Below, piece after piece: positions 1 through 6,495 of a stretch of 6,495 nucleotides of DNA. Both the position numbers and the translations under genes were made by a program. Where the stretch lies: the IMG/VR virus record IMGVR_UViG_2711768010_000010; one strand, given 5' to 3'. The first letter of the stretch is position 1; the number at the start of each line of letters is the position of its first letter. Source of the DNA: a virus. Taxonomy: Duplodnaviria; Heunggongvirae; Uroviricota; Caudoviricetes. The notes beneath the pieces were generated by a model. It was given only the letters and a program-made list of their open reading frames with translations. It ran no database searches and was not told the DNA's origin.

Positions 1-107
1 CTCTCGTCTGGGGAATATCTCCCCGGCAGCCTTCAGGGAAAAATATCATCAGATGGCTGCTTAAAAAAAGAACAAATGGTAGTGTCCGCTATTGCCAGTA
101 CACCTCA
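1..107. repeat. Left copy of a perfect 107-bp terminal inverted repeat (IR-L)
   Basis: Reverse complement of 6389..6495 is identical to 1..107 (107/107, checked block by block). Match breaks at 108 (t) versus complement of 6388 (g). Contains internal short palindromes (GGGGA-ATATC-TCCCC near 10..24; GCAGCC..GGCTGC near 26..60). Confidence 0.95.
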
Positions 108-306
108 TCCATCACCGAAAAAAATTGGCTTTTACACCATTGGCGATAAAAGCATTTACCTGTATGACCTACGCCGCATGGATGAAATCATGGAGGCTCT
201 TGATAATCGTTCGTCGATGGATTGGTGTGTTGCTGTTCATGATATGAATGCAGGGTTTGATGAAAAGATTTTGTTCCCCTCATCAGTTGAAAGCACTGCG
301 GGTTAA
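76..306 (+). CDS. Hypothetical protein, 76 aa; first 11 codons lie inside IR-L
   Basis: ORF with ATG at 76 and TAA at 304..306. Weak RBS. No family recognised by eye. Stop is followed directly by a strong AAGGAG RBS for the next gene, which supports it being part of an operon. Confidence 0.45.
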   Translation: MVVSAIASTPHPSPKKIGFYTIGDKSIYLYDLRRMDEIMEALDNRSSMDWCVAVHDMNAGFDEKILFPSSVESTAG

Positions 307-316
307 GGAGTAACAC

Positions 317-484
317 ATGACCACTATTACCAAAGAACGTATTGAATTGTTCATTAAAAACCCGCTTGAAAACGGGCTTACCCGTGGTGAACAAATGGAA
401 CTGGCACGGATTGCGCTGGCATCGCTGGAAGCAGAGCCGGTTGTGTTCTGGTTTGAAAAATATCAAGAAGGGGCTACGGCATGA
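317..484 (+). CDS. Small hypothetical protein, 55 aa (not in the supplied ORF track, below its length cutoff)
   Basis: AAGGAG at 305..310, 6 nt before ATG 317. Stop TGA 482..484 overlaps the next ATG 481 (ATGA coupling). Product [12 protein letters not shown]...[28 protein letters not shown] resembles the N-terminal half of the downstream 114-aa protein. Confidence 0.6.
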
Positions 485-825
485 CGACTTTTACCAGAGA
501 GCAGTTAATAGCTCACGCAGAGGAGACTATTGAAGCACAGAGACTGTGCATACCGGGCACAATCGACCATGACATCATCCGCACATATAAGATGGATATT
601 GCTGTTCTGGAAATCGCACTGGTATCGCTGGCAGCAGAGCCAGCCGGTAAATTGCATGAATACAAACCAGTGGGATATCAGCGTCTGGTCGATGAGTTAA
701 CCATGCTGGTAAAGCAGTTAACCTGGCAACTGAGGAAAGCGAAGCCAGACTGCAAATTACCGGATAAGGCGATGAGTTATCTGGAGCGGAACGGACTGAT
801 AAGCGTGGAGGATATTTTACGATGA
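481..825 (+). CDS. Hypothetical prophage protein, 114 aa; paralog of the preceding 55-aa ORF
   Basis: ATG 481 overlaps the upstream stop. Shared motifs with the upstream ORF: MTT(I/F)T(K/R)E and (M)xxAxxxIALxSLxAEP. Stop TGA 823..825 overlaps the next ATG 822. Confidence 0.65.
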
Positions 826-905
826 CCTGGCCTGAAGCATTAACAACGGTAGGAATTGCGATGGCGGTGGCGCTGGTGGTGTATTCGATTTGCCGCTGGG
901 GATAA
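822..905 (+). CDS. Possible 27-aa single-pass hydrophobic peptide ([27 protein letters not shown])
   Basis: ATG 822 in ATGA overlap with the upstream stop. GGAGGA at 807..812. Hydrophobic core [15 protein letters not shown]. Stop TAA 903..905. Very short, so tentative. Confidence 0.3.
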
Positions 906-1004
906 AAACGGTTTGCGGGAAAAGGAGAGTTAAGTAGAATTGCAGCGGGTGCTTGAGGCTATCTGTCTCAGGCATGAACACCAAAAGGCAGATAGAGAAA
1001 AGCC

Positions 1005-1075
1005 CCAGTTAACATTACGCGTCCGGCAAGACGCTTAACATTAATCTGAGGCTCAATCTATGAACGGCAAATCTA
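1005..1075 (-). ncRNA. Predicted Sok-like antisense RNA (coordinates approximate)
   Basis: Inference only: in hok/sok loci a roughly 65-nt antisense RNA overlaps the mok translation-initiation region. A possible minus-strand promoter (TTGCCT-17-TAACCT) lies opposite 1078..1106. Exact ends cannot be fixed from sequence. Confidence 0.25.
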
Positions 1076-1272
1076 GGTTAGCCTCTTACGTGCCGAAAGG
1101 CAAGGAGAAGCAGGCTATGAAGCAGCAAAAGGCGATGTTAATCGCCCTGATCGTCATCTGTTTAACCGTCATAGTGACGGCACTGGTAACGAGGAAAGAC
1201 CTCTGCGAGGTACGAATTCGAACCGGCCAGACGGAGGTCGCTGTCTTCACAGCTTACGAACCTGAGGAGTAA
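1060..1272 (+). CDS. mok-type in-frame leader ORF containing hok (70 aa)
   Basis: ORF MNGKSRLASYVPKGKEKQA + Hok. GAGG at 1048..1051, 8 nt before ATG 1060. From memory, chromosomal mok reading frames extend hok in frame in the same way. Confidence 0.5.
   Translation: MNGKSRLASYVPKGKEKQAMKQQKAMLIALIVICLTVIVTALVTRKDLCEVRIRTGQTEVAVFTAYEPEE
1117..1272 (+). CDS. hok: Hok/Gef-family type I toxin, 51 aa (HokD/RelF-like)
   Basis: Product MKQQKAMLIALIVICLTVIVTALVTRKDLCEVRIRTGQTEVAVFTAYEPEE carries the Hok family signature (TM helix, LTRKxLCE, GxxEVAxFxAYE). AGGAG at 1103..1107, 9 nt before ATG 1117. Confidence 0.85.
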   Translation: MKQQKAMLIALIVICLTVIVTALVTRKDLCEVRIRTGQTEVAVFTAYEPEE

Positions 1273-1340
1273 GAGACCAGGCGGGGGAGAAATCCCTCGC
1301 CACCTCTGATGGGGCAGGCATCCTCAATGCACCCACACTT

Positions 1341-1369
1341 AACCCGCTTCGGCGGGTTTTTGTTTTTAT
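1341..1369 (+). terminator. Rho-independent terminator at the 3' end of the hok transcript
   Basis: AACCCGC-TTCG-GCGGGTT hairpin (UUCG tetraloop) followed by TTTTTGTTTTT. Confidence 0.7.
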
Positions 1370-1380
1370 TTTCAACGCGT

Positions 1381-1410
1381 TTGAAGTTTTAGATGGTGCC
1401 GGAATAGAAT
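1381..1410 (+). promoter_or_regulatory. Candidate sigma70 promoter for the downstream operon
   Basis: TTGAAG (1381..1386), 18-nt spacer, TAGAAT (1405..1410), just after the hok terminator and about 80 nt before the next ORF. Confidence 0.3.
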
Positions 1411-1492
1411 CAAAAATACTTAAGTAGCGCGCAGGGAGAAGAGGGATGGACCCCGAACAGGGGAGTGCTATTTATCTGGAAGGATTCTGTTG

Positions 1493-1774
1493 ATGAAAAT
1501 CGAAGAATTACGTGAAATTTTTAGTGAAGATGGCCTCTATACTGTGCGCGTTGAGAATGGCGCTATTGTCAGCCACTGCCTTCCAGACTACACAATTCTG
1601 ATAATTCAGCCGTCTTTGCCAGCAGGCACGGGCGGCGCTCTCACGCATTTAAATCTGATTGGTACCAGCATCCCCCATGCACTGAAGAACAGGCCGAATG
1701 GCTCATTCAGTGTTACCGCAGGCGCGGATGCGAGGTTAAAAAAGCCCTTAGCCTCGACTACCGTCACTGGATAA
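1493..1774 (+). CDS. Hypothetical protein, 93 aa; sits where rem lies in Qin-type prophages
   Basis: ATG 1493 (the track start at 1490 is TTG immediately before it). GGAAGGA about 10 nt upstream. Stop TAA 1772..1774. The rem assignment is positional only, from the recalled order hokD-rem-ydfU. Confidence 0.5.
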   Translation: MKIEELREIFSEDGLYTVRVENGAIVSHCLPDYTILIIQPSLPAGTGGALTHLNLIGTSIPHALKNRPNGSFSVTAGADARLKKPLASTTVTG

Positions 1775-1849
1775 TCTCCGTCAGGCTCCCTTACTCCGAA
1801 CGGCCAACGCGTCCGTCCCGCACATTCCAGCAACGGATCTGGAGGTAAT

Positions 1850-2908
1850 GTGCGGGTATTACTTCGACCTGTTCTGGTACCGGAACTCGGTCTGGTTATC
1901 GTTAAGCCAGGCCGTGAATCAATGTCAGCATTCCATAACGGCAGAATACTGGTGGAGCCGGAACCAAAAAGCATGCGTAATCTGCCGTCCGGGGTCGTTC
2001 CTGCCGCTCGCCAGCCGCTGGTGGAAGACAAAACATTGCTGCCGTTTTTCAGTAACGCACGGGTGATTCGTGCTGCTGGTGGTGCTGGTGCATTGTCTGA
2101 CTGGCTGTTGCGCCATATTAAATCCTGCCAGTGGCCACACGGCGATTATCATCACAGCGAAACCGTCATTCACCGTTATGGTACCGGCGCAATGGTGTTG
2201 TGCTGGCACTGCGACAACCAGCTGCGTGACCAGACATCCGAATCACTCGAGCAACTTGCTCATCAAAACCTGTCAGCATGGATGATTGACGTCATCGGTC
2301 ACGCAATAAGCGGTACGCAGGAGCGTGAATTATCTCTGGCTGAATTATCCTGGTGGGCGGTCCGCAATCAGGTGGCGGACGCGCTACCGGAAGCGGTATT
2401 ACGTCGTTCGCTGGGGTTGCGTGCGGAAAAAATTCGCTCTGTGTACAGTGAAAGCGACATCATACCGGGAGAGCAGACAGCCACCAGCATACTGAAGCAG
2501 CGCACAAAAAATATTGCGTTACTGCCTCACGTCCACCAGCAACAGAACCCACCACAGGAAAAGACGGTGGTCAGCATTGCCGTTGATCCGGAGTCACCGG
2601 CTCAGTATCTCCAGCGCCAGAAATCACAACGGGAAGAGATGCCTGTATACACGCGCTGGGTAAAAACGCAGAAATGCATGACGTGTGGCAATCAGGCAGA
2701 TGATCCGCATCACATCATTGGTCATGGACTGGGAGGGATGGGAACAAAGGCTGATGATTTGTTTGTTATTCCGTTATGCCGTAAATGCCGTAACGAACTA
2801 CATGCCGGAGTAAAAGATTTTGAAGAGAAACACGGCAGTCAGCTGTTGTTGCTGATTCGTTTTTTAATGCACGCGAGAAATTCGGGTGTTCTGAAGTGGA
2901 AAGCATAA
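1850..2908 (+). CDS. DUF968 / YdfU-like prophage protein, 352 aa, with Cys/His-rich C-terminal motif
   Basis: Long ORF. GTG start at 1850 with GGAGG at 1841..1845 (alternative in-frame ATG at 1922). C-terminus has CMTC...PHHIIGHG...CRKCRNELH, an HNH-like pattern. Similarity to E. coli YdfU is from memory. Confidence 0.7.
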   Translation: MRVLLRPVLVPELGLVIVKPGRESMSAFHNGRILVEPEPKSMRNLPSGVVPAARQPLVEDKTLLPFFSNARVIRAAGGAGALSDWLLRHIKSCQWPHGDYHHSETVIHRYGTGAMVLCWHCDNQLRDQTSESLEQLAHQNLSAWMIDVIGHAISGTQERELSLAELSWWAVRNQVADALPEAVLRRSLGLRAEKIRSVYSESDIIPGEQTATSILKQRTKNIALLPHVHQQQNPPQEKTVVSIAVDPESPAQYLQRQKSQREEMPVYTRWVKTQKCMTCGNQADDPHHIIGHGLGGMGTKADDLFVIPLCRKCRNELHAGVKDFEEKHGSQLLLLIRFLMHARNSGVLKWKA

Positions 2909-3289
2909 ATGACCGAGCGCATAGAATTTGTTTTACCTTACCCGCCGACGGTGAACACTTACTGGCGTCGTCGTGGCAGCACATATTTTGTATCAAAAGC
3001 CGGGGAGCGTTATCGCCGGGCAGTGGCGCTTATTGTTCGCCAGCAGCGGCTGAAATTAAGCCTGTCCGGAAGGTTGGCAATAAAAATTATTGCAGAACCA
3101 CCGGATAAGCGCCGCCGTGACCTGGACAATATTCTGAAAGCGCCGCTGGATGCGCTGACGCATGCGGGGTTGCTAATGGACGATGAGCAGTTTGATGAAA
3201 TCAATATCGTTCGTGCTCAGCCAGTATCTGGTGGACGTCTGGGGGTGAAGATTTATCCCATAATGCTTGAAGGGCAGGTCAAAAAATGA
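2909..3289 (+). CDS. rusA: RusA-family Holliday junction resolvase, 126 aa
   Basis: Conserved RusA pattern: LPYPPTVNTYWRRRG near the N-terminus and PDKRRRDLDNILKAPLDALTHAG (E. coli RusA has [23 protein letters not shown]). ATG 2909 directly follows the upstream TAA. Stop overlaps the Q start (ATGA at 3286). Confidence 0.9.
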   Translation: MTERIEFVLPYPPTVNTYWRRRGSTYFVSKAGERYRRAVALIVRQQRLKLSLSGRLAIKIIAEPPDKRRRDLDNILKAPLDALTHAGLLMDDEQFDEINIVRAQPVSGGRLGVKIYPIMLEGQVKK

Positions 3290-4107
3290 AACTGGAAGAT
3301 TTACCGAAATACTACTCCCCAAAATCCCCCGGCCTGACTGATGCATCGGCCTCAACGTCGAAAGATGCGCTGAGTATCACTGATGTGATGGCCGCGCAGG
3401 GCATGACACAGAATCGGGCTGAGATGGGGGTTTCTGCGTTCCTTGGGAAAATGGGCATTAGTATGAATGACAGAGAGCGGGCAACAGAATTGCTGACAGA
3501 ATATGCACTCAGTCGGTGTGATCGCGTGGCGGCGTTAAGAAAACTCCCGGCAGAAATAAAACCGGCAGTGATGCGTATTATGGCTTCGTATGCGTTTGAA
3601 GATTATGCCCGTAGCGCGGCGAGCAAAAAACAGTGCCCCTGCTGTCACGGAAAAAAATTTATTGAAAGCGAGGTTTTTACAAACAAGATCCAGTATCCGG
3701 ATGGTAAGCCGCCGGTATGGGCAAAGTGTACGAAAGGTGTGTATCCGTCTTACTGGGAAGAATGGAAAAAAGTCAGGGAGGTGGTAAAAGTTGCCTGTCC
3801 GGAGTGTGGCGGAAAGGGTGAGGTTTCCACCGCCTGTAAGGATTGCCGTGGGCGTGGTGTCGCCATTCATCGTGAAGAGTCGGTAAAACGTGGTATGCCT
3901 GTTATCAGAGACTGCCAGCGTTGTGGTGGTCGTGGCTATGAAAGACTACCATCAACGGAGGCATTTAATGCTATATGCGAGGTGACAAACCAGATAACAC
4001 GCGCGTCATGGGAAAAAACAGTTAAGAAATTTTATGATGCGCTGGTGACCCGGTTTGATATTGAAGAAGCATGGGCTGAGCGGCAGTTAAAAAAGGTAAC
4101 TAGGTAA
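3286..4107 (+). CDS. Late-gene antiterminator Q (long, Cys-rich QuuQ-type), 273 aa
   Basis: Sits immediately upstream of a lambda-pR'-like promoter, pause element and tR'. Carries repeated CxxCxGxG zinc-finger motifs (CPECGGKG, CKDCRGRG, CQRCGGRG) plus CPCCHGKK. Family assignment not database-checked. Confidence 0.7.
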   Translation: MKLEDLPKYYSPKSPGLTDASASTSKDALSITDVMAAQGMTQNRAEMGVSAFLGKMGISMNDRERATELLTEYALSRCDRVAALRKLPAEIKPAVMRIMASYAFEDYARSAASKKQCPCCHGKKFIESEVFTNKIQYPDGKPPVWAKCTKGVYPSYWEEWKKVREVVKVACPECGGKGEVSTACKDCRGRGVAIHREESVKRGMPVIRDCQRCGGRGYERLPSTEAFNAICEVTNQITRASWEKTVKKFYDALVTRFDIEEAWAERQLKKVTR

Positions 4108-4111
4108 CAAG

Positions 4112-4140
4112 GTTGATTTTTCCGGAATCTGTGGTAAATT
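4112..4140 (+). promoter_or_regulatory. Late promoter pR'-like with extended -10, followed by sigma-dependent pause element
   Basis: TTGATT (4113..4118) and TGgTAAATT (4132..4140). AACGATGGG sits 6 nt after the -10 (4147..4155), the same spacing as lambda pR' (TAAATT-6nt-AACGATGGG). Confidence 0.7.
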
Positions 4141-4187
4141 CGTTATAACGATGGGCGTTTTATGCCTGACGTTAGAAGAGTTTCTAC

Positions 4188-4211
4188 AACCCGCCGCCGA
4201 GCGGGTTTTTT
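4188..4211 (+). terminator. tR'-like rho-independent terminator
   Basis: AACCCGC-CGCCGA-GCGGGTT hairpin followed by TTTTTT, about 65 nt after the predicted pR' start. Confidence 0.7.
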
Positions 4212-4331
4212 ATGACTGAAATCGCGTCAGTACAGTAAACGCGCTGGTGGCGGTGAATACCTGTCTTTCAGCTTGCTGGCTTTTTCGACAAGAGTTATTG
4301 GTGTGTCACGTTAACCGGAAAAGGAAAAGAC

Positions 4332-4529
4332 ATGCTAAAACAGCAGGATATGACAGAAACCGCCAGAGTGGTGTTTAATGAATTAAGCGTTACCGAACCG
4401 GCGACAGTCGGGGAGATAGCGCAGAATACTTACCTTTCACGCGAACGCTGCCAGTTAATACTGACCCAGCTGGTTATGGCGGGTCTGGCAGACTATCAGT
4501 TCGGTTGTTACAGACGCCTTCCGCAGTGA
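4332..4529 (+). CDS. Small winged-helix/HTH-like protein, 65 aa
   Basis: AAGGA 6 nt before ATG 4332. HTH-like segment TVGEIAQNTYLSRERCQLILTQLVMAGL. Its 3' end is embedded in a terminator hairpin. Confidence 0.5.
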   Translation: MLKQQDMTETARVVFNELSVTEPATVGEIAQNTYLSRERCQLILTQLVMAGLADYQFGCYRRLPQ

Positions 4530-4539
4530 AGGCTTTTTT
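4516..4539 (+). terminator. Rho-independent terminator after the small wHTH ORF
   Basis: GCCTTC-CGCAGT-GAAGGC hairpin (stop codon TGA 4527..4529 lies in the loop/stem) followed by TTTTTT. Confidence 0.65.
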
Positions 4540-4542
4540 ATT

Positions 4543-4553
4543 TGTGGTAAATG
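4543..4553 (+). promoter_or_regulatory. Candidate extended -10 promoter element upstream of the methyltransferase
   Basis: TGTGGTAAAT at 4543..4552 is identical to the pR' extended -10 core at 4130..4139. No clear -35. Confidence 0.3.
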
Positions 4554-4556
4554 GGC

Positions 4557-4587
4557 GGCTGGTGGGTGTTAGGGGCACCCACCAGCC
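4557..4587 (+). promoter_or_regulatory. Perfect 12-bp palindrome (GGCTGGTGGGTG-7nt-CACCCACCAGCC): operator or RNA hairpin
   Basis: Arms 4557..4568 and 4576..4587 are exact reverse complements. No T-tract follows, so not a canonical intrinsic terminator. Lies between the candidate promoter and the methyltransferase start. Confidence 0.5.
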
Positions 4588-4679
4588 ATCTGCTCATGCG
4601 TTGGGTTCACAAGCAAACCTCAGGCCCACTGCTTTGCGCAAAAGCAGAATGAGCCTATCAGAGACAGGCTTAATGATCC

Positions 4680-5738
4680 ATGCTTAATACTGTAAAAATA
4701 TCCAGTTGTGAGTTAATCAACGCCGACTGCCTGGAATTTATCCGGTCGTTACCCGAAAATTCTGTTGACCTGATAGTCACGGACCCGCCGTACTTTAAAG
4801 TGAAGCCTGAGGGCTGGGATAACCAGTGGAAGGGCGACGATGATTACCTGAAGTGGCTGGACCAGTGTCTGGCGCAGTTCTGGCGGGTGCTGAAACCTGC
4901 CGGAAGTCTTTACCTGTTCTGTGGTCATCGCCTGGCATCTGATATCGAAATCATGATGCGTGAACGCTTCAGTGTGCTGAACCATATTATCTGGGCGAAG
5001 CCGTCCGGACGCTGGAACGGATGCAACAAGGAAAGCCTGCGGGCGTATTTCCCCGCCACAGAGCGCATTCTGTTCGCGGAACATTATCAGGGGCCGTATC
5101 GTCCGAAAGATGCCGGGTATGCGGCGAAGGGCAGTGCACTGAAACAGCATGTGATGGCCCCGCTGATTTCTTACTTTCGTGATGCGCGAGCTGCCCTGGG
5201 GATAACGGCAAAACAGATTGCAGATGCCACAGGAAAGAAAAACATGGTGTCGCACTGGTTCAGTGCCGGTCAGTGGCAGTTGCCGAATGAAAGCGATTAT
5301 CTGAAATTACAGGCGCTGTTTGCCCGGGTGGCAGAAGAGAAGCATCGGCGTGGTGAACTGGAAAAGCTCCACCACCAGCTGGTGGATACGTATACCTCAC
5401 TGAACCGGCAGTATGCGGAGCTGCTGAGTGAATATAAACATCTGCGGCGGTATTTTGGCGTGACGGTGCAGGTGCCGTATACCGATGTGTGGACGCATAA
5501 ACCGGTGCAGTTCTATCCCGGGAAACATCCGTGCGAAAAACCGGCAGAAATGCTGCAGCAGATAATCAGCGCTAGCAGTCGTCCGGGTGACCTGATTGCA
5601 GATTTTTTCATGGGGTTGGGTTCGACAGTGAAAGCGGCACTGGCGCTCGGGCGTCGTGCAATTGGCGTTGAGCTGGAGACTGAACGTTTTGAGCAGACGG
5701 TTCGGGAAGTACAGGATTTAGTCAGCCAGAACGGATGA
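4680..5738 (+). CDS. Orphan DNA methyltransferase, amino-MTase (N6-adenine or N4-cytosine), beta-class motif order, 352 aa
   Basis: Motif IV DPPY near the N-terminus (LIVTDPPYF) and motif I FxGxGS near the C-terminus (DFFMGLGST), separated by a roughly 200-aa insert. No restriction endonuclease candidate in the window. Confidence 0.85.
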   Translation: MLNTVKISSCELINADCLEFIRSLPENSVDLIVTDPPYFKVKPEGWDNQWKGDDDYLKWLDQCLAQFWRVLKPAGSLYLFCGHRLASDIEIMMRERFSVLNHIIWAKPSGRWNGCNKESLRAYFPATERILFAEHYQGPYRPKDAGYAAKGSALKQHVMAPLISYFRDARAALGITAKQIADATGKKNMVSHWFSAGQWQLPNESDYLKLQALFARVAEEKHRRGELEKLHHQLVDTYTSLNRQYAELLSEYKHLRRYFGVTVQVPYTDVWTHKPVQFYPGKHPCEKPAEMLQQIISASSRPGDLIADFFMGLGSTVKAALALGRRAIGVELETERFEQTVREVQDLVSQNG

Positions 5739-5740
5739 TA

Positions 5741-5769
5741 TTGAAGAATTAATTACGCGTCGTTATTAT
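5741..5769 (+). promoter_or_regulatory. Sigma70 promoter for the tRNA cassette
   Basis: TTGAAG (5741..5746), 17-nt spacer, TATTAT (5764..5769), then a GC-rich discriminator (GCGGCTCC) before the tRNA 5' end at 5779. Confidence 0.6.
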
Positions 5770-5778
5770 GCGGCTCCC

Positions 5779-5854
5779 GGCCCTTTAGCTCAGTGGTGAG
5801 AGCGAGCGACTCATAATCGCCAGGTCGCTGGTTCAAATCCCCGATGGCGGTCCA
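5779..5854 (+). tRNA. tRNA-Ile2(CAU)-like (ileX/ileZ-like); 3' end does not fold canonically, possibly defective
   Basis: Acceptor 5' strand GGCCCTT, D-arm GCTC-AGTGGTGA-GAGC and anticodon loop CTCATAA (anticodon CAT) match recalled E. coli ileX almost base for base. After the T-loop (TTCAAAT) the sequence CCCCGATGGCGGTCCA pairs with neither the T-stem 5' strand GCTGG nor the acceptor strand. Confidence 0.5.
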
Positions 5855-5867
5855 TTATCTGCATCAT

Positions 5868-5944
5868 GCGTTGTTAGCTCAGCCGGACAGAGCAATTGCC
5901 TTCTAAGCAATCGGTCACTGGTTCGAATCCAGTACAACGCGCCA
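5868..5944 (+). tRNA. tRNA-Arg(UCU), phage-type (argO-like)
   Basis: Full cloverleaf folded by hand: acceptor GCGTTGT/ACAACGC, D-stem GCTC/GAGC, anticodon stem ATTGC/GCAAT with loop CTTCTAA (anticodon TCT), T-arm ACTGG-TTCGAAT-CCAGT, discriminator G, encoded CCA. Differs from the recalled chromosomal argU sequence. Confidence 0.9.
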
Positions 5945-5958
5945 CACTTATTTTCCCT

Positions 5959-5984
5959 GGCTCGCTTTTGCGGGCCTTTTTTTT
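5959..5984 (+). terminator. Rho-independent terminator after the tRNA cassette
   Basis: GGCTCGC-TTTT-GCGGGCC hairpin (one G.U pair) followed by 8 T residues. Confidence 0.75.
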
Positions 5985-6181
5985 AAATGTCTCACAATTC
6001 AGACGGTTGACAGTTGTCTGTTTTGCGGGGAGTTTGTTAAAAGAAACTGGCATGGTGAATCCCCCTGTGCGGAGGGGCAATCAGCGAGTAGGTATATGGG
6101 ATAATCGCGGATTCAGGTGCTGGTACTGAATTCACCGGGAGGCACCCGGCATCATGCAATGGCACATAGCGCCACTCTCCA

Positions 6182-6204
6182 GCCCTCTCCGGAGGGGCTT
6201 TTCT
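6182..6204 (+). terminator. Terminator-like hairpin with U-rich tail in the non-coding region
   Basis: GCCCT-CTCCGGA-GGGGC followed by TTTTCT. Short stem, so weak evidence. CGGAGGGGC also occurs at 6070..6078. Confidence 0.3.
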
Positions 6205-6388
6205 GTGCCGGATACATCACAGTTTCTGGAACCTTAGGTACTACAGTATCAGTCAGGGTGCTATATTTTCAGATGTGATGAAAGCCTGTCAGCAGGCAGG
6301 GCGTATCGGAAATGACCCAGTAGAGAAAACGTTGACTCAGATACCGGTGCTGAGTTACCGGGAAACCGGCATCACATGACCGCTATCC

Positions 6389-6495
6389 TGAGGTGTACTG
6401 GCAATAGCGGACACTACCATTTGTTCTTTTTTTAAGCAGCCATCTGATGATATTTTTCCCTGAAGGCTGCCGGGGAGATATTCCCCAGACGAGAG
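6389..6495. repeat. Right copy of the perfect 107-bp terminal inverted repeat (IR-R)
   Basis: Exact reverse complement of 1..107. Carries an inverted copy of the ORF 76..306 start; on the minus strand this gives only a 21-codon remnant (6355..6420). Confidence 0.95.

Follow-up and report, generated by a model that had tools for sequence, protein, structure and literature searches.

The stretch of DNA analysed here, IMG/VR virus record IMGVR_UViG_2711768010_000010 (hereafter the window, 6,495 nucleotides (nt) in its full length), is bounded by two arms that form an inverted repeat. A repeat search of the window placed these arms at 1-107 and 6389-6495, each 107 nt long and 100% complementary to the other, and the first bases inward of them, 108 T and 6388 C, are not complementary. 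An earlier reading of the letters alone (the sequence-only reading) had described the same exact arms with the match ending one base inward, and in this it was reproduced. A perfect inverted repeat of 107 nt within 6.5 kb cannot have arisen by chance. As detailed below, the arms are the inner ends of two copies of the insertion sequence (IS) IS600, of the IS3 family, and the interior (108-6388) comes from a decayed lambdoid prophage adjoining ompW in Shigella sonnei, of whose nin/Q late-regulatory region it covers 6.28 kb. The genome and contig stretches compared with the window bear L numbers: L002-L005 lie in the Escherichia coli collection, L018-L027 include the closed S. sonnei loci, and L007 and L011-L013 are IMG/VR contigs. 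At the two ends of the window lie the following features, among them an open reading frame (ORF) that spans the left junction.

1 to 107, plus strand: the 3'-terminal 107 nt of IS600 (IS coordinates 1158-1264), with the last 20 codons and the stop of the transposase OrfB (2-64), then the right terminal inverted repeat, which ends ...CACCTCA
76 to 306, plus strand: chimeric ORF; the IS600 right end supplies the start and the first 10 codons, and the phage part, 108-306, is the 3' two-thirds of an interrupted 87-aa gene read in the same frame
108 to 110: TCC, the phage triplet that directly follows the left IS600 and is its predicted target; the uninterrupted relative L005 reads GATCGCTA TCC ATCACC
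6386 to 6388: TCC, the triplet on the inner side of the right IS600, belonging to its 3-bp target-site duplication; the order in closed genomes is ...GCTATCC / IS600 / TCCTTCCAGG...
6389 to 6495, minus strand: the 3'-terminal 107 nt of a second, inverted IS600 copy; the plus strand begins TGAGGTG..., and the full copy in L018 is 16398-17661, minus strand

Read in frame 2, window positions 2-64 of the left arm translate to SRLGNISPAAFREKYHQMAA, followed by the stop at 62-64, and this is the C-terminus of the IS600 transposase. When the 107-nt arm was searched against 5,426 complete E. coli genomes, it was found at 6,105 places in 2,887 of them, on chromosomes as well as on plasmids, with up to 43 places in a single genome. 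Nearly all of these matches were 100% identical and annotated as 'IS3-like element IS600 family transposase', and more than 3,000 records of annotated IS600 copies showed 107/107 identity to the arm. The sequence-only reading had left room for a module of related prophages; a search with the repeat returns instead an IS600 end, at up to 43 places per genome. A complete annotated copy of the element, in L003, is 1264 bp long, starts with TGAGGTAGCC and ends with ACACCTCA, and has TG...CA ends. Its termini match as an inverted repeat at 23 of 40 positions, it is bracketed by a 3-bp duplication (CGC / IS / CGC), and its RefSeq label is 'IS3-like element IS600 family transposase, programmed frameshift'. 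The inner boundaries of the window's arms, ...CCTCA on the left and TGAGG on the right, coincide with the exact right terminus of IS600, with the TG/CA ends typical of the IS3 family, and homology to uninterrupted prophages starts at 108 and stops at 6388. The arms thus carry every testable trait of IS600 and of the IS3 family, that is, the identity, the length, the TG...CA ends, the frameshifted rve transposase and the 3-bp duplication, and they differ from the IS600 copies of Shigella genomes only in that the window shows the last 107 nt of each copy. Five IS families are expanded in every Shigella species, IS600 among them, and recent IS activity is highest in S. sonnei (PMC7373316).

The closed genomes reveal what lies beyond the ends of the window. 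As a junction-specific tag we used the chimeric ORF 76-306, which is catalogued as the S. sonnei prophage protein Q3Z0Y9_SHISS (strain Ss046) and occurs on 832 contigs; in a public assembly collection it matched in 795 blocks, many closed chromosomes among them. Two of the tag-carrying closed chromosomes, CP060117 (UKMCC1015) and CP022457 (2015C-3566), were confirmed to be S. sonnei. Ten distinct closed-genome arrangements were returned, and in eight of them (L018, L020-L023 and L025-L027) the segment (identity to the window up to 99.97%) lies between two complete inverted IS600 copies of 1264 bp. In L018 these copies occupy 8769-10032 (plus strand, left) and 16398-17661 (minus strand, right) and are identical at 1264/1264 positions, and in the other loci the two copies of a pair differ at 1-3 positions (126, 980, 1148) or by small differences in length. 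Each flanking copy encodes a 385-aa transposase with hits to HTH_Tnp_1, HTH_21, rve and rve_3. The same two-IS600 structure is present in the 21.5-kb IMG/VR contig L012.

The true repeat is therefore the full 1264-bp IS600, and the recombinase is the OrfAB transposase of each flanking copy, whose gene starts about 40 nt beyond each window end. The outer limit of the 107-nt repeat coincides with the ends of the record, so that the window by itself is silent on how far the repeat extends; this limit is not a sequence boundary, and the closed genomes carry the repeat on over the whole IS. The earlier statement that no recombinase lies inside is right for positions 108-6388, among whose 10 ORFs Pfam gave no domain of a transposase, invertase or integrase, and wrong for the arms, each of which carries the last 20 codons and the stop of the transposase. 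What had been framed as a cassette outside the known classes, lacking transposase and invertase and having an overlong repeat, turns out to be DNA between the clipped 3' ends of two full IS600 copies with their transposase genes just outside.

We then considered why the repeat measures 107 nt. De Bruijn-graph assemblers produce contigs that enter a collapsed multi-copy repeat by k nt and then stop. We simulated a de Bruijn unitig on L018 with k values of 31, 55, 77, 107 and 127, and in each case it ended exactly k nt into IS600 on both sides and so had perfect inverted repeats of k nt at its ends. At k = 107, the L018 unitig measures 6579 bp, which is the 6495 nt of the window plus an 84-nt difference in the transfer RNA (tRNA) cluster. 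Independent IMG/VR contigs that carry a junction stop at comparable places, namely 107 nt into IS600 at both ends (L013) and 72, 61, 51, 47, 37 and 32 nt into it, and the junction ORF lies on contigs of just 5-10 kb in 325 of the 795 collection blocks. According to these results, the window is almost certainly a stand-alone short-read de Bruijn contig assembled at k = 107, an origin that matches its length to the base. IS elements are indeed the main cause of breaks in short-read assembly (PMC2821320).

The two IS600 copies have different histories. In L004, where the right site is uninterrupted, the sequence reads GCTATCC TTCCAGG, with the target GACCGCTA TCC TTCCAGG, and in all eight closed loci with both copies the right IS600 is bracketed as TCC / IS / TCC. 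Outside this copy, uninterrupted prophage sequence runs on into the SASA esterase and holin genes. The right IS600 is a simple, ordinary transposition. The left copy, in contrast, has no matching TCC on its outer side in the closed genomes, and its outer flank varies, being ...TTTAATTTT in most loci and ...CTGATTAG in L026 and L012. Inspection of the flanks for target-site duplications, as the sequence-only reading had proposed, thus brought out an IS600 transposase on both sides and the TCC duplication at the right copy, with no duplication at the left copy or around the unit. The 5' part of the interrupted gene is located about 2.2 kb upstream of the left IS600, in an ancestral block of about 1 kb. 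Because the duplication is missing, the outer flank is variable and the 5' part of the gene has been relocated upstream, we read the left IS600 as the breakpoint of a later IS-IS recombination that rearranged the upstream DNA. In L018 (6230-8769), the block of about 1 kb has been inverted and interrupted by an IS1; it holds DUF977, DUF4014 and the 5' part of the 87-aa gene, and it joins a truncated integrase gene adjoining ompW with no IS at the joint. The inverted block possibly arose from an IS600-IS600 inversion followed by deletion. A single inversion between the two copies was also considered as the cause of the lost left duplication and was rejected, as the left copy is bordered on its outer side neither by the expected upstream phage DNA nor by the right outer flank in reverse complement.

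Three loci carry one of the two insertions only. In L019 and L024, both closed S. sonnei loci, and in contig L011, the left insertion is present and the right site is uninterrupted, the next inverted IS600 lying about 3.4 kb further downstream, after the lysis genes. The two insertions are therefore independent, and the right one is polymorphic in S. sonnei. At window position 1580/1581, the same three loci contain 250 additional bp with a Rem-like ORF. The left and right target sites are alike, GATCGCTGTCC / ATC (in its S. sonnei version) and GACCGCTATCC / TTC respectively, with TCC as the duplicated triplet in each, and both are partly like the core of the IS600 right end, CCGCTATTGCC (window 100-116 and 6378-6392; L005 2990-3010; L018 6543-6553). 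A preference for targets that resemble the terminal inverted repeats is described for some members of the IS3 family, and the resemblance might reflect such a preference, although three sites are too few to judge.

Altogether, we are close to certain that the window is a piece of a decayed prophage lying between two full-length inverted IS600 copies whose right ends point inward, and that the 107-nt repeat is the part of each copy that the record has retained. This rests on direct observation: the arms are IS600 sequence and end exactly at its terminus, closed genomes hold the complete copies, the right copy has a target duplication, and simulated contigs run k nt into the repeat. The right IS600 arrived by ordinary transposition, and the left one has since recombined with other IS copies, rearranging the upstream DNA; we propose that a short-read assembly ran k = 107 nt into the collapsed multi-copy IS600 at both ends before stopping. 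The sole recombinase involved is the IS600 OrfAB transposase of the flanking copies. The pair is a potential substrate for RecA-dependent inversion, with no sign of a programmed switch or of a mobile cassette.

Several observations weigh against this explanation. Neither IS-phage junction occurs in the 5,426 complete E. coli genomes, a collection without S. sonnei, and the left junction was not found in JGI metagenome contigs or in GTDB representative genomes. Both junctions do occur in IMG/VR contigs from isolate genomes. Compared with every closed genome examined, the window has an 84-nt deletion in its tRNA cluster, so that it does not match any of them exactly, and the window could have been trimmed to the repeat by the pipeline that produced it rather than having ended there during assembly.

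Among the other explanations, the one that survives best is that RecA-dependent recombination between the inverted IS600 copies flips the 6.3-kb segment within a population, turning Q and its promoter away from the esterase and lysis genes and thereby acting as an on/off switch. The substrate exists, since inverted repeats of 1264 bp with 0-3 differences, or with small differences in length, stand 6.3 kb apart, and the left IS600 has clearly recombined with other copies, as shown by its variable outer flanks and missing duplication. Inversion between paired IS copies is moreover an established mechanism to which short reads are blind, as no new junctions are formed (PMC5009759), and IS-flanked inversions are on record in S. 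sonnei (PMC12795559). However, the segment keeps its ancestral orientation relative to the SASA and holin genes in all eight distinct closed-genome arrangements with both copies. The right copy also retains its TCC duplication and original outer flank; an odd number of inversions would not alter these, yet no history of flipping fits. In addition, the prophage is already in decay, its integrase being truncated, its early block inverted and an IS1 inserted, which makes a regulatory role unlikely. We accordingly give this scenario only a very small chance. The RecA-mediated invertible cassette of the sequence-only reading is hence borne out as far as a mechanistically possible substrate goes, and its flipped state was seen in none of the eight closed arrangements with both copies.

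A functional inversion switch is very unlikely, and rare stochastic flipping, of which the eight closed arrangements show no case, is plausible. That the segment with Q flips at a measurable frequency in growing S. sonnei, through homologous recombination between the IS600 copies, is in our view unlikely, if less so than a switch. If this were true, there would be subpopulations in which Q and pR' face away from the remnant esterase and lysis genes, that is, an 'accidental switch' built by IS elements without a recombinase and hidden from short-read surveys. The IS-bounded inverting segments described in S. sonnei (PMC12795559) and E. coli (PMC5009759) have, like the window, two inverted copies of one IS around a segment; unlike them, the present segment has been seen in no inverted state, spans 6.3 kb only and lies inside a dead prophage. 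A site-specific inverton was rejected, there being no invertase in the segment or next to it, a repeat that is an IS, and a single orientation in the eight closed arrangements. The Hin/Gin/Cin/Pin systems and the fim switch share with the window an inverted repeat that bounds a segment adjoining phage genes, but they rely on sites of 9-30 bp and a dedicated invertase, whereas the window has a 1264-bp IS repeat and no invertase. The nearest serine recombinase is a large one of 506 aa, about 6 kb upstream of the left IS600 and beyond ompW; the immediate neighbours are the IS600 transposases.

A composite transposon, in which two IS600 copies would move the intervening prophage DNA as one unit, has the formal architecture on its side, with the same IS bracketing the segment on both sides, as in the Tn10/Tn5-type elements, where IS copies likewise flank a cargo in inverted orientation. 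Unlike those elements, the present arrangement has no unit-level duplication, contains IS copies that arrived independently and a cargo in its native context, and gives no evidence of movement. No target duplication surrounds the unit, whose outer flanks are TTT or TAG on the left versus TCC on the right, and the right IS600 has a TCC/TCC duplication of its own, which indicates that it inserted alone. The segment is in its ancestral context, collinear with the downstream late genes and with uninterrupted relatives, and the left insertion by itself in L019, L024 and L011 speaks for separate events. The unit was not seen at a second locus or on a plasmid, and to its right the same prophage context follows in each of the 10 arrangements. 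Furthermore, both outward ends are left inverted repeats (IRL) and do not form a pair of left and right inverted repeats (IRL-IRR). Circle formation in the IS3 family normally uses an IRL-IRR pair. We reject a composite transposon as hardly conceivable. The non-autonomous mobile cassette suggested by the sequence-only reading is rejected on account of the absent unit duplication, the constant locus and the right IS600 with its own duplication.

Just as improbable is an assembly fold-back or chimera in which the right-hand copy would not be real. In its favour, the window ends exactly at the repeat and the length of the repeat equals a typical assembler k, and at least one IMG/VR contig resembles a chimeric join made through a short stretch of IS600 end. 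This contig, L007 (2690316285_000008), has at 3866-3926 a stretch of 61 nt of the IS600 end between the left region of the window and a paralogous hok region of about 90% identity, and it looks like an assembler join via a repeat k-mer. However, several chromosomes closed independently of one another, as well as the 21.5-kb IMG/VR contig, contain the two junctions and the two full IS copies, and a fold-back artefact is refuted for the lineage. The suspicion of the sequence-only reading was justified in one respect, the length of 107 nt being an effect of the assembler k-mer, and mistaken as to the second copy, since chromosomes closed with long reads hold both. Finally, an inverted duplication between mosaic prophages, which the sequence-only reading had also entertained, was rejected, as the repeat is an IS found at up to 43 places per genome, not phage DNA, and goes no further than the exact IS ends.

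The arrangement of two IS600 copies around a prophage remnant is already known and holds nothing beyond known biology, the 2005-era Ss046 reference proteome having its left junction. Biologically it matters little, for the expansion of IS600, the interruption of prophages by IS elements and rearrangement through them are all well documented for Shigella. The methodological consequence is more general. A short-read contig that lies between two inverted copies of a multi-copy IS will always have perfect inverted repeats of k nt at its ends and no recombinase inside, and pipelines that read such terminal repeats as evidence that a sequence is complete or is a new mobile element, for example in completeness calls for viral contigs, can be misled by it. 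Translation of the arms together with their copy number exposes such IS ends at once.

When the whole window was compared with the 5,426 complete E. coli genomes, the top hits covered 108-6202 only, with at most 96.8% identity, and related intact E. coli prophages align from 108 to about 6202-6389, stopping precisely at the IS ends. In the uninterrupted relatives, position 108 falls within the gene for the 87-aa hypothetical protein, and position 6388 falls in intergenic DNA upstream of a SASA-family esterase gene. The ORF 76-306 that results from the left insertion is a handy lineage marker for it. Between the two IS ends, the following features were found.

317 to 825, plus strand: two small lambdoid nin-region ORFs of 55 aa and 114 aa, with no Pfam match
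947 to 1272, plus strand: complete hok/sok type I toxin-antitoxin, with the sok RNA region at 947-1122 and hok at 1117-1272 (Rfam RF01794, 112 bits; Pfam HOK_GEF, 3e-23; hokD in L002)
1850 to 2908, plus strand: DUF968/YdfU-like protein with an HNH-like C-terminus (Pfam DUF968, 2.6e-62)
2909 to 3289, plus strand: RusA Holliday-junction resolvase, a structure-specific nuclease and not a site-specific recombinase (Pfam RusA, 1.5e-16)
3286 to 4107, plus strand: late-gene antiterminator Q (Pfam Antiterm, 1.6e-53)
4188 to 4215, plus strand: hairpin resembling an intrinsic terminator, with a T run, about 80 nt downstream of Q; its position is that expected for a putative tR' after pR'
4680 to 5738, plus strand: phage DNA N6/N4 methyltransferase (Pfam N6_N4_Mtase, 7.9e-42)
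5782 to 5944, plus strand: tRNA cluster, with a hybrid, probably defective tRNA at 5782-5847 and tRNA-Arg(TCT) at 5868-5944
6021 to 6210, plus strand: full-length element of the STnc100 small RNA family, ending in a terminator-like hairpin at 6181-6199 (Rfam RF02076, 123.6 bits)

A small ORF lies between the terminator-like hairpin of Q and the DNA methyltransferase gene. The order hok, ydfU (DUF968), rusA, Q, methylase and tRNAs is shared with the PPompW-type and Stx-phage-like lambdoid prophages of E. coli, at 90-97% identity, and in those prophages a nanS-p-like esterase gene and the lysis genes come next in order. Unlike them, the S. sonnei prophage is without stx, has been broken by IS600 (twice) and by IS1, and is rearranged.

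The tRNA cluster is the place where the window departs from the closed S. sonnei loci, which have three tRNAs there (L018 15704-15863 was compared), the window being without 84 nt. The deletion sits between the T-arm near-repeats GGTTCAAATCC and GGTTCAAGTCC and joins the 5' body of a tRNA(CAT) to the 3' end of a tRNA-Arg(TCG); the resulting hybrid is not called by ARAGORN and scores 33.7 bits in Rfam. Either a real deletion or an assembly error would account for this difference. The STnc100 element follows the tRNA cluster and precedes the right IS600; in intact phages, the late-region esterase gene comes downstream of this place.

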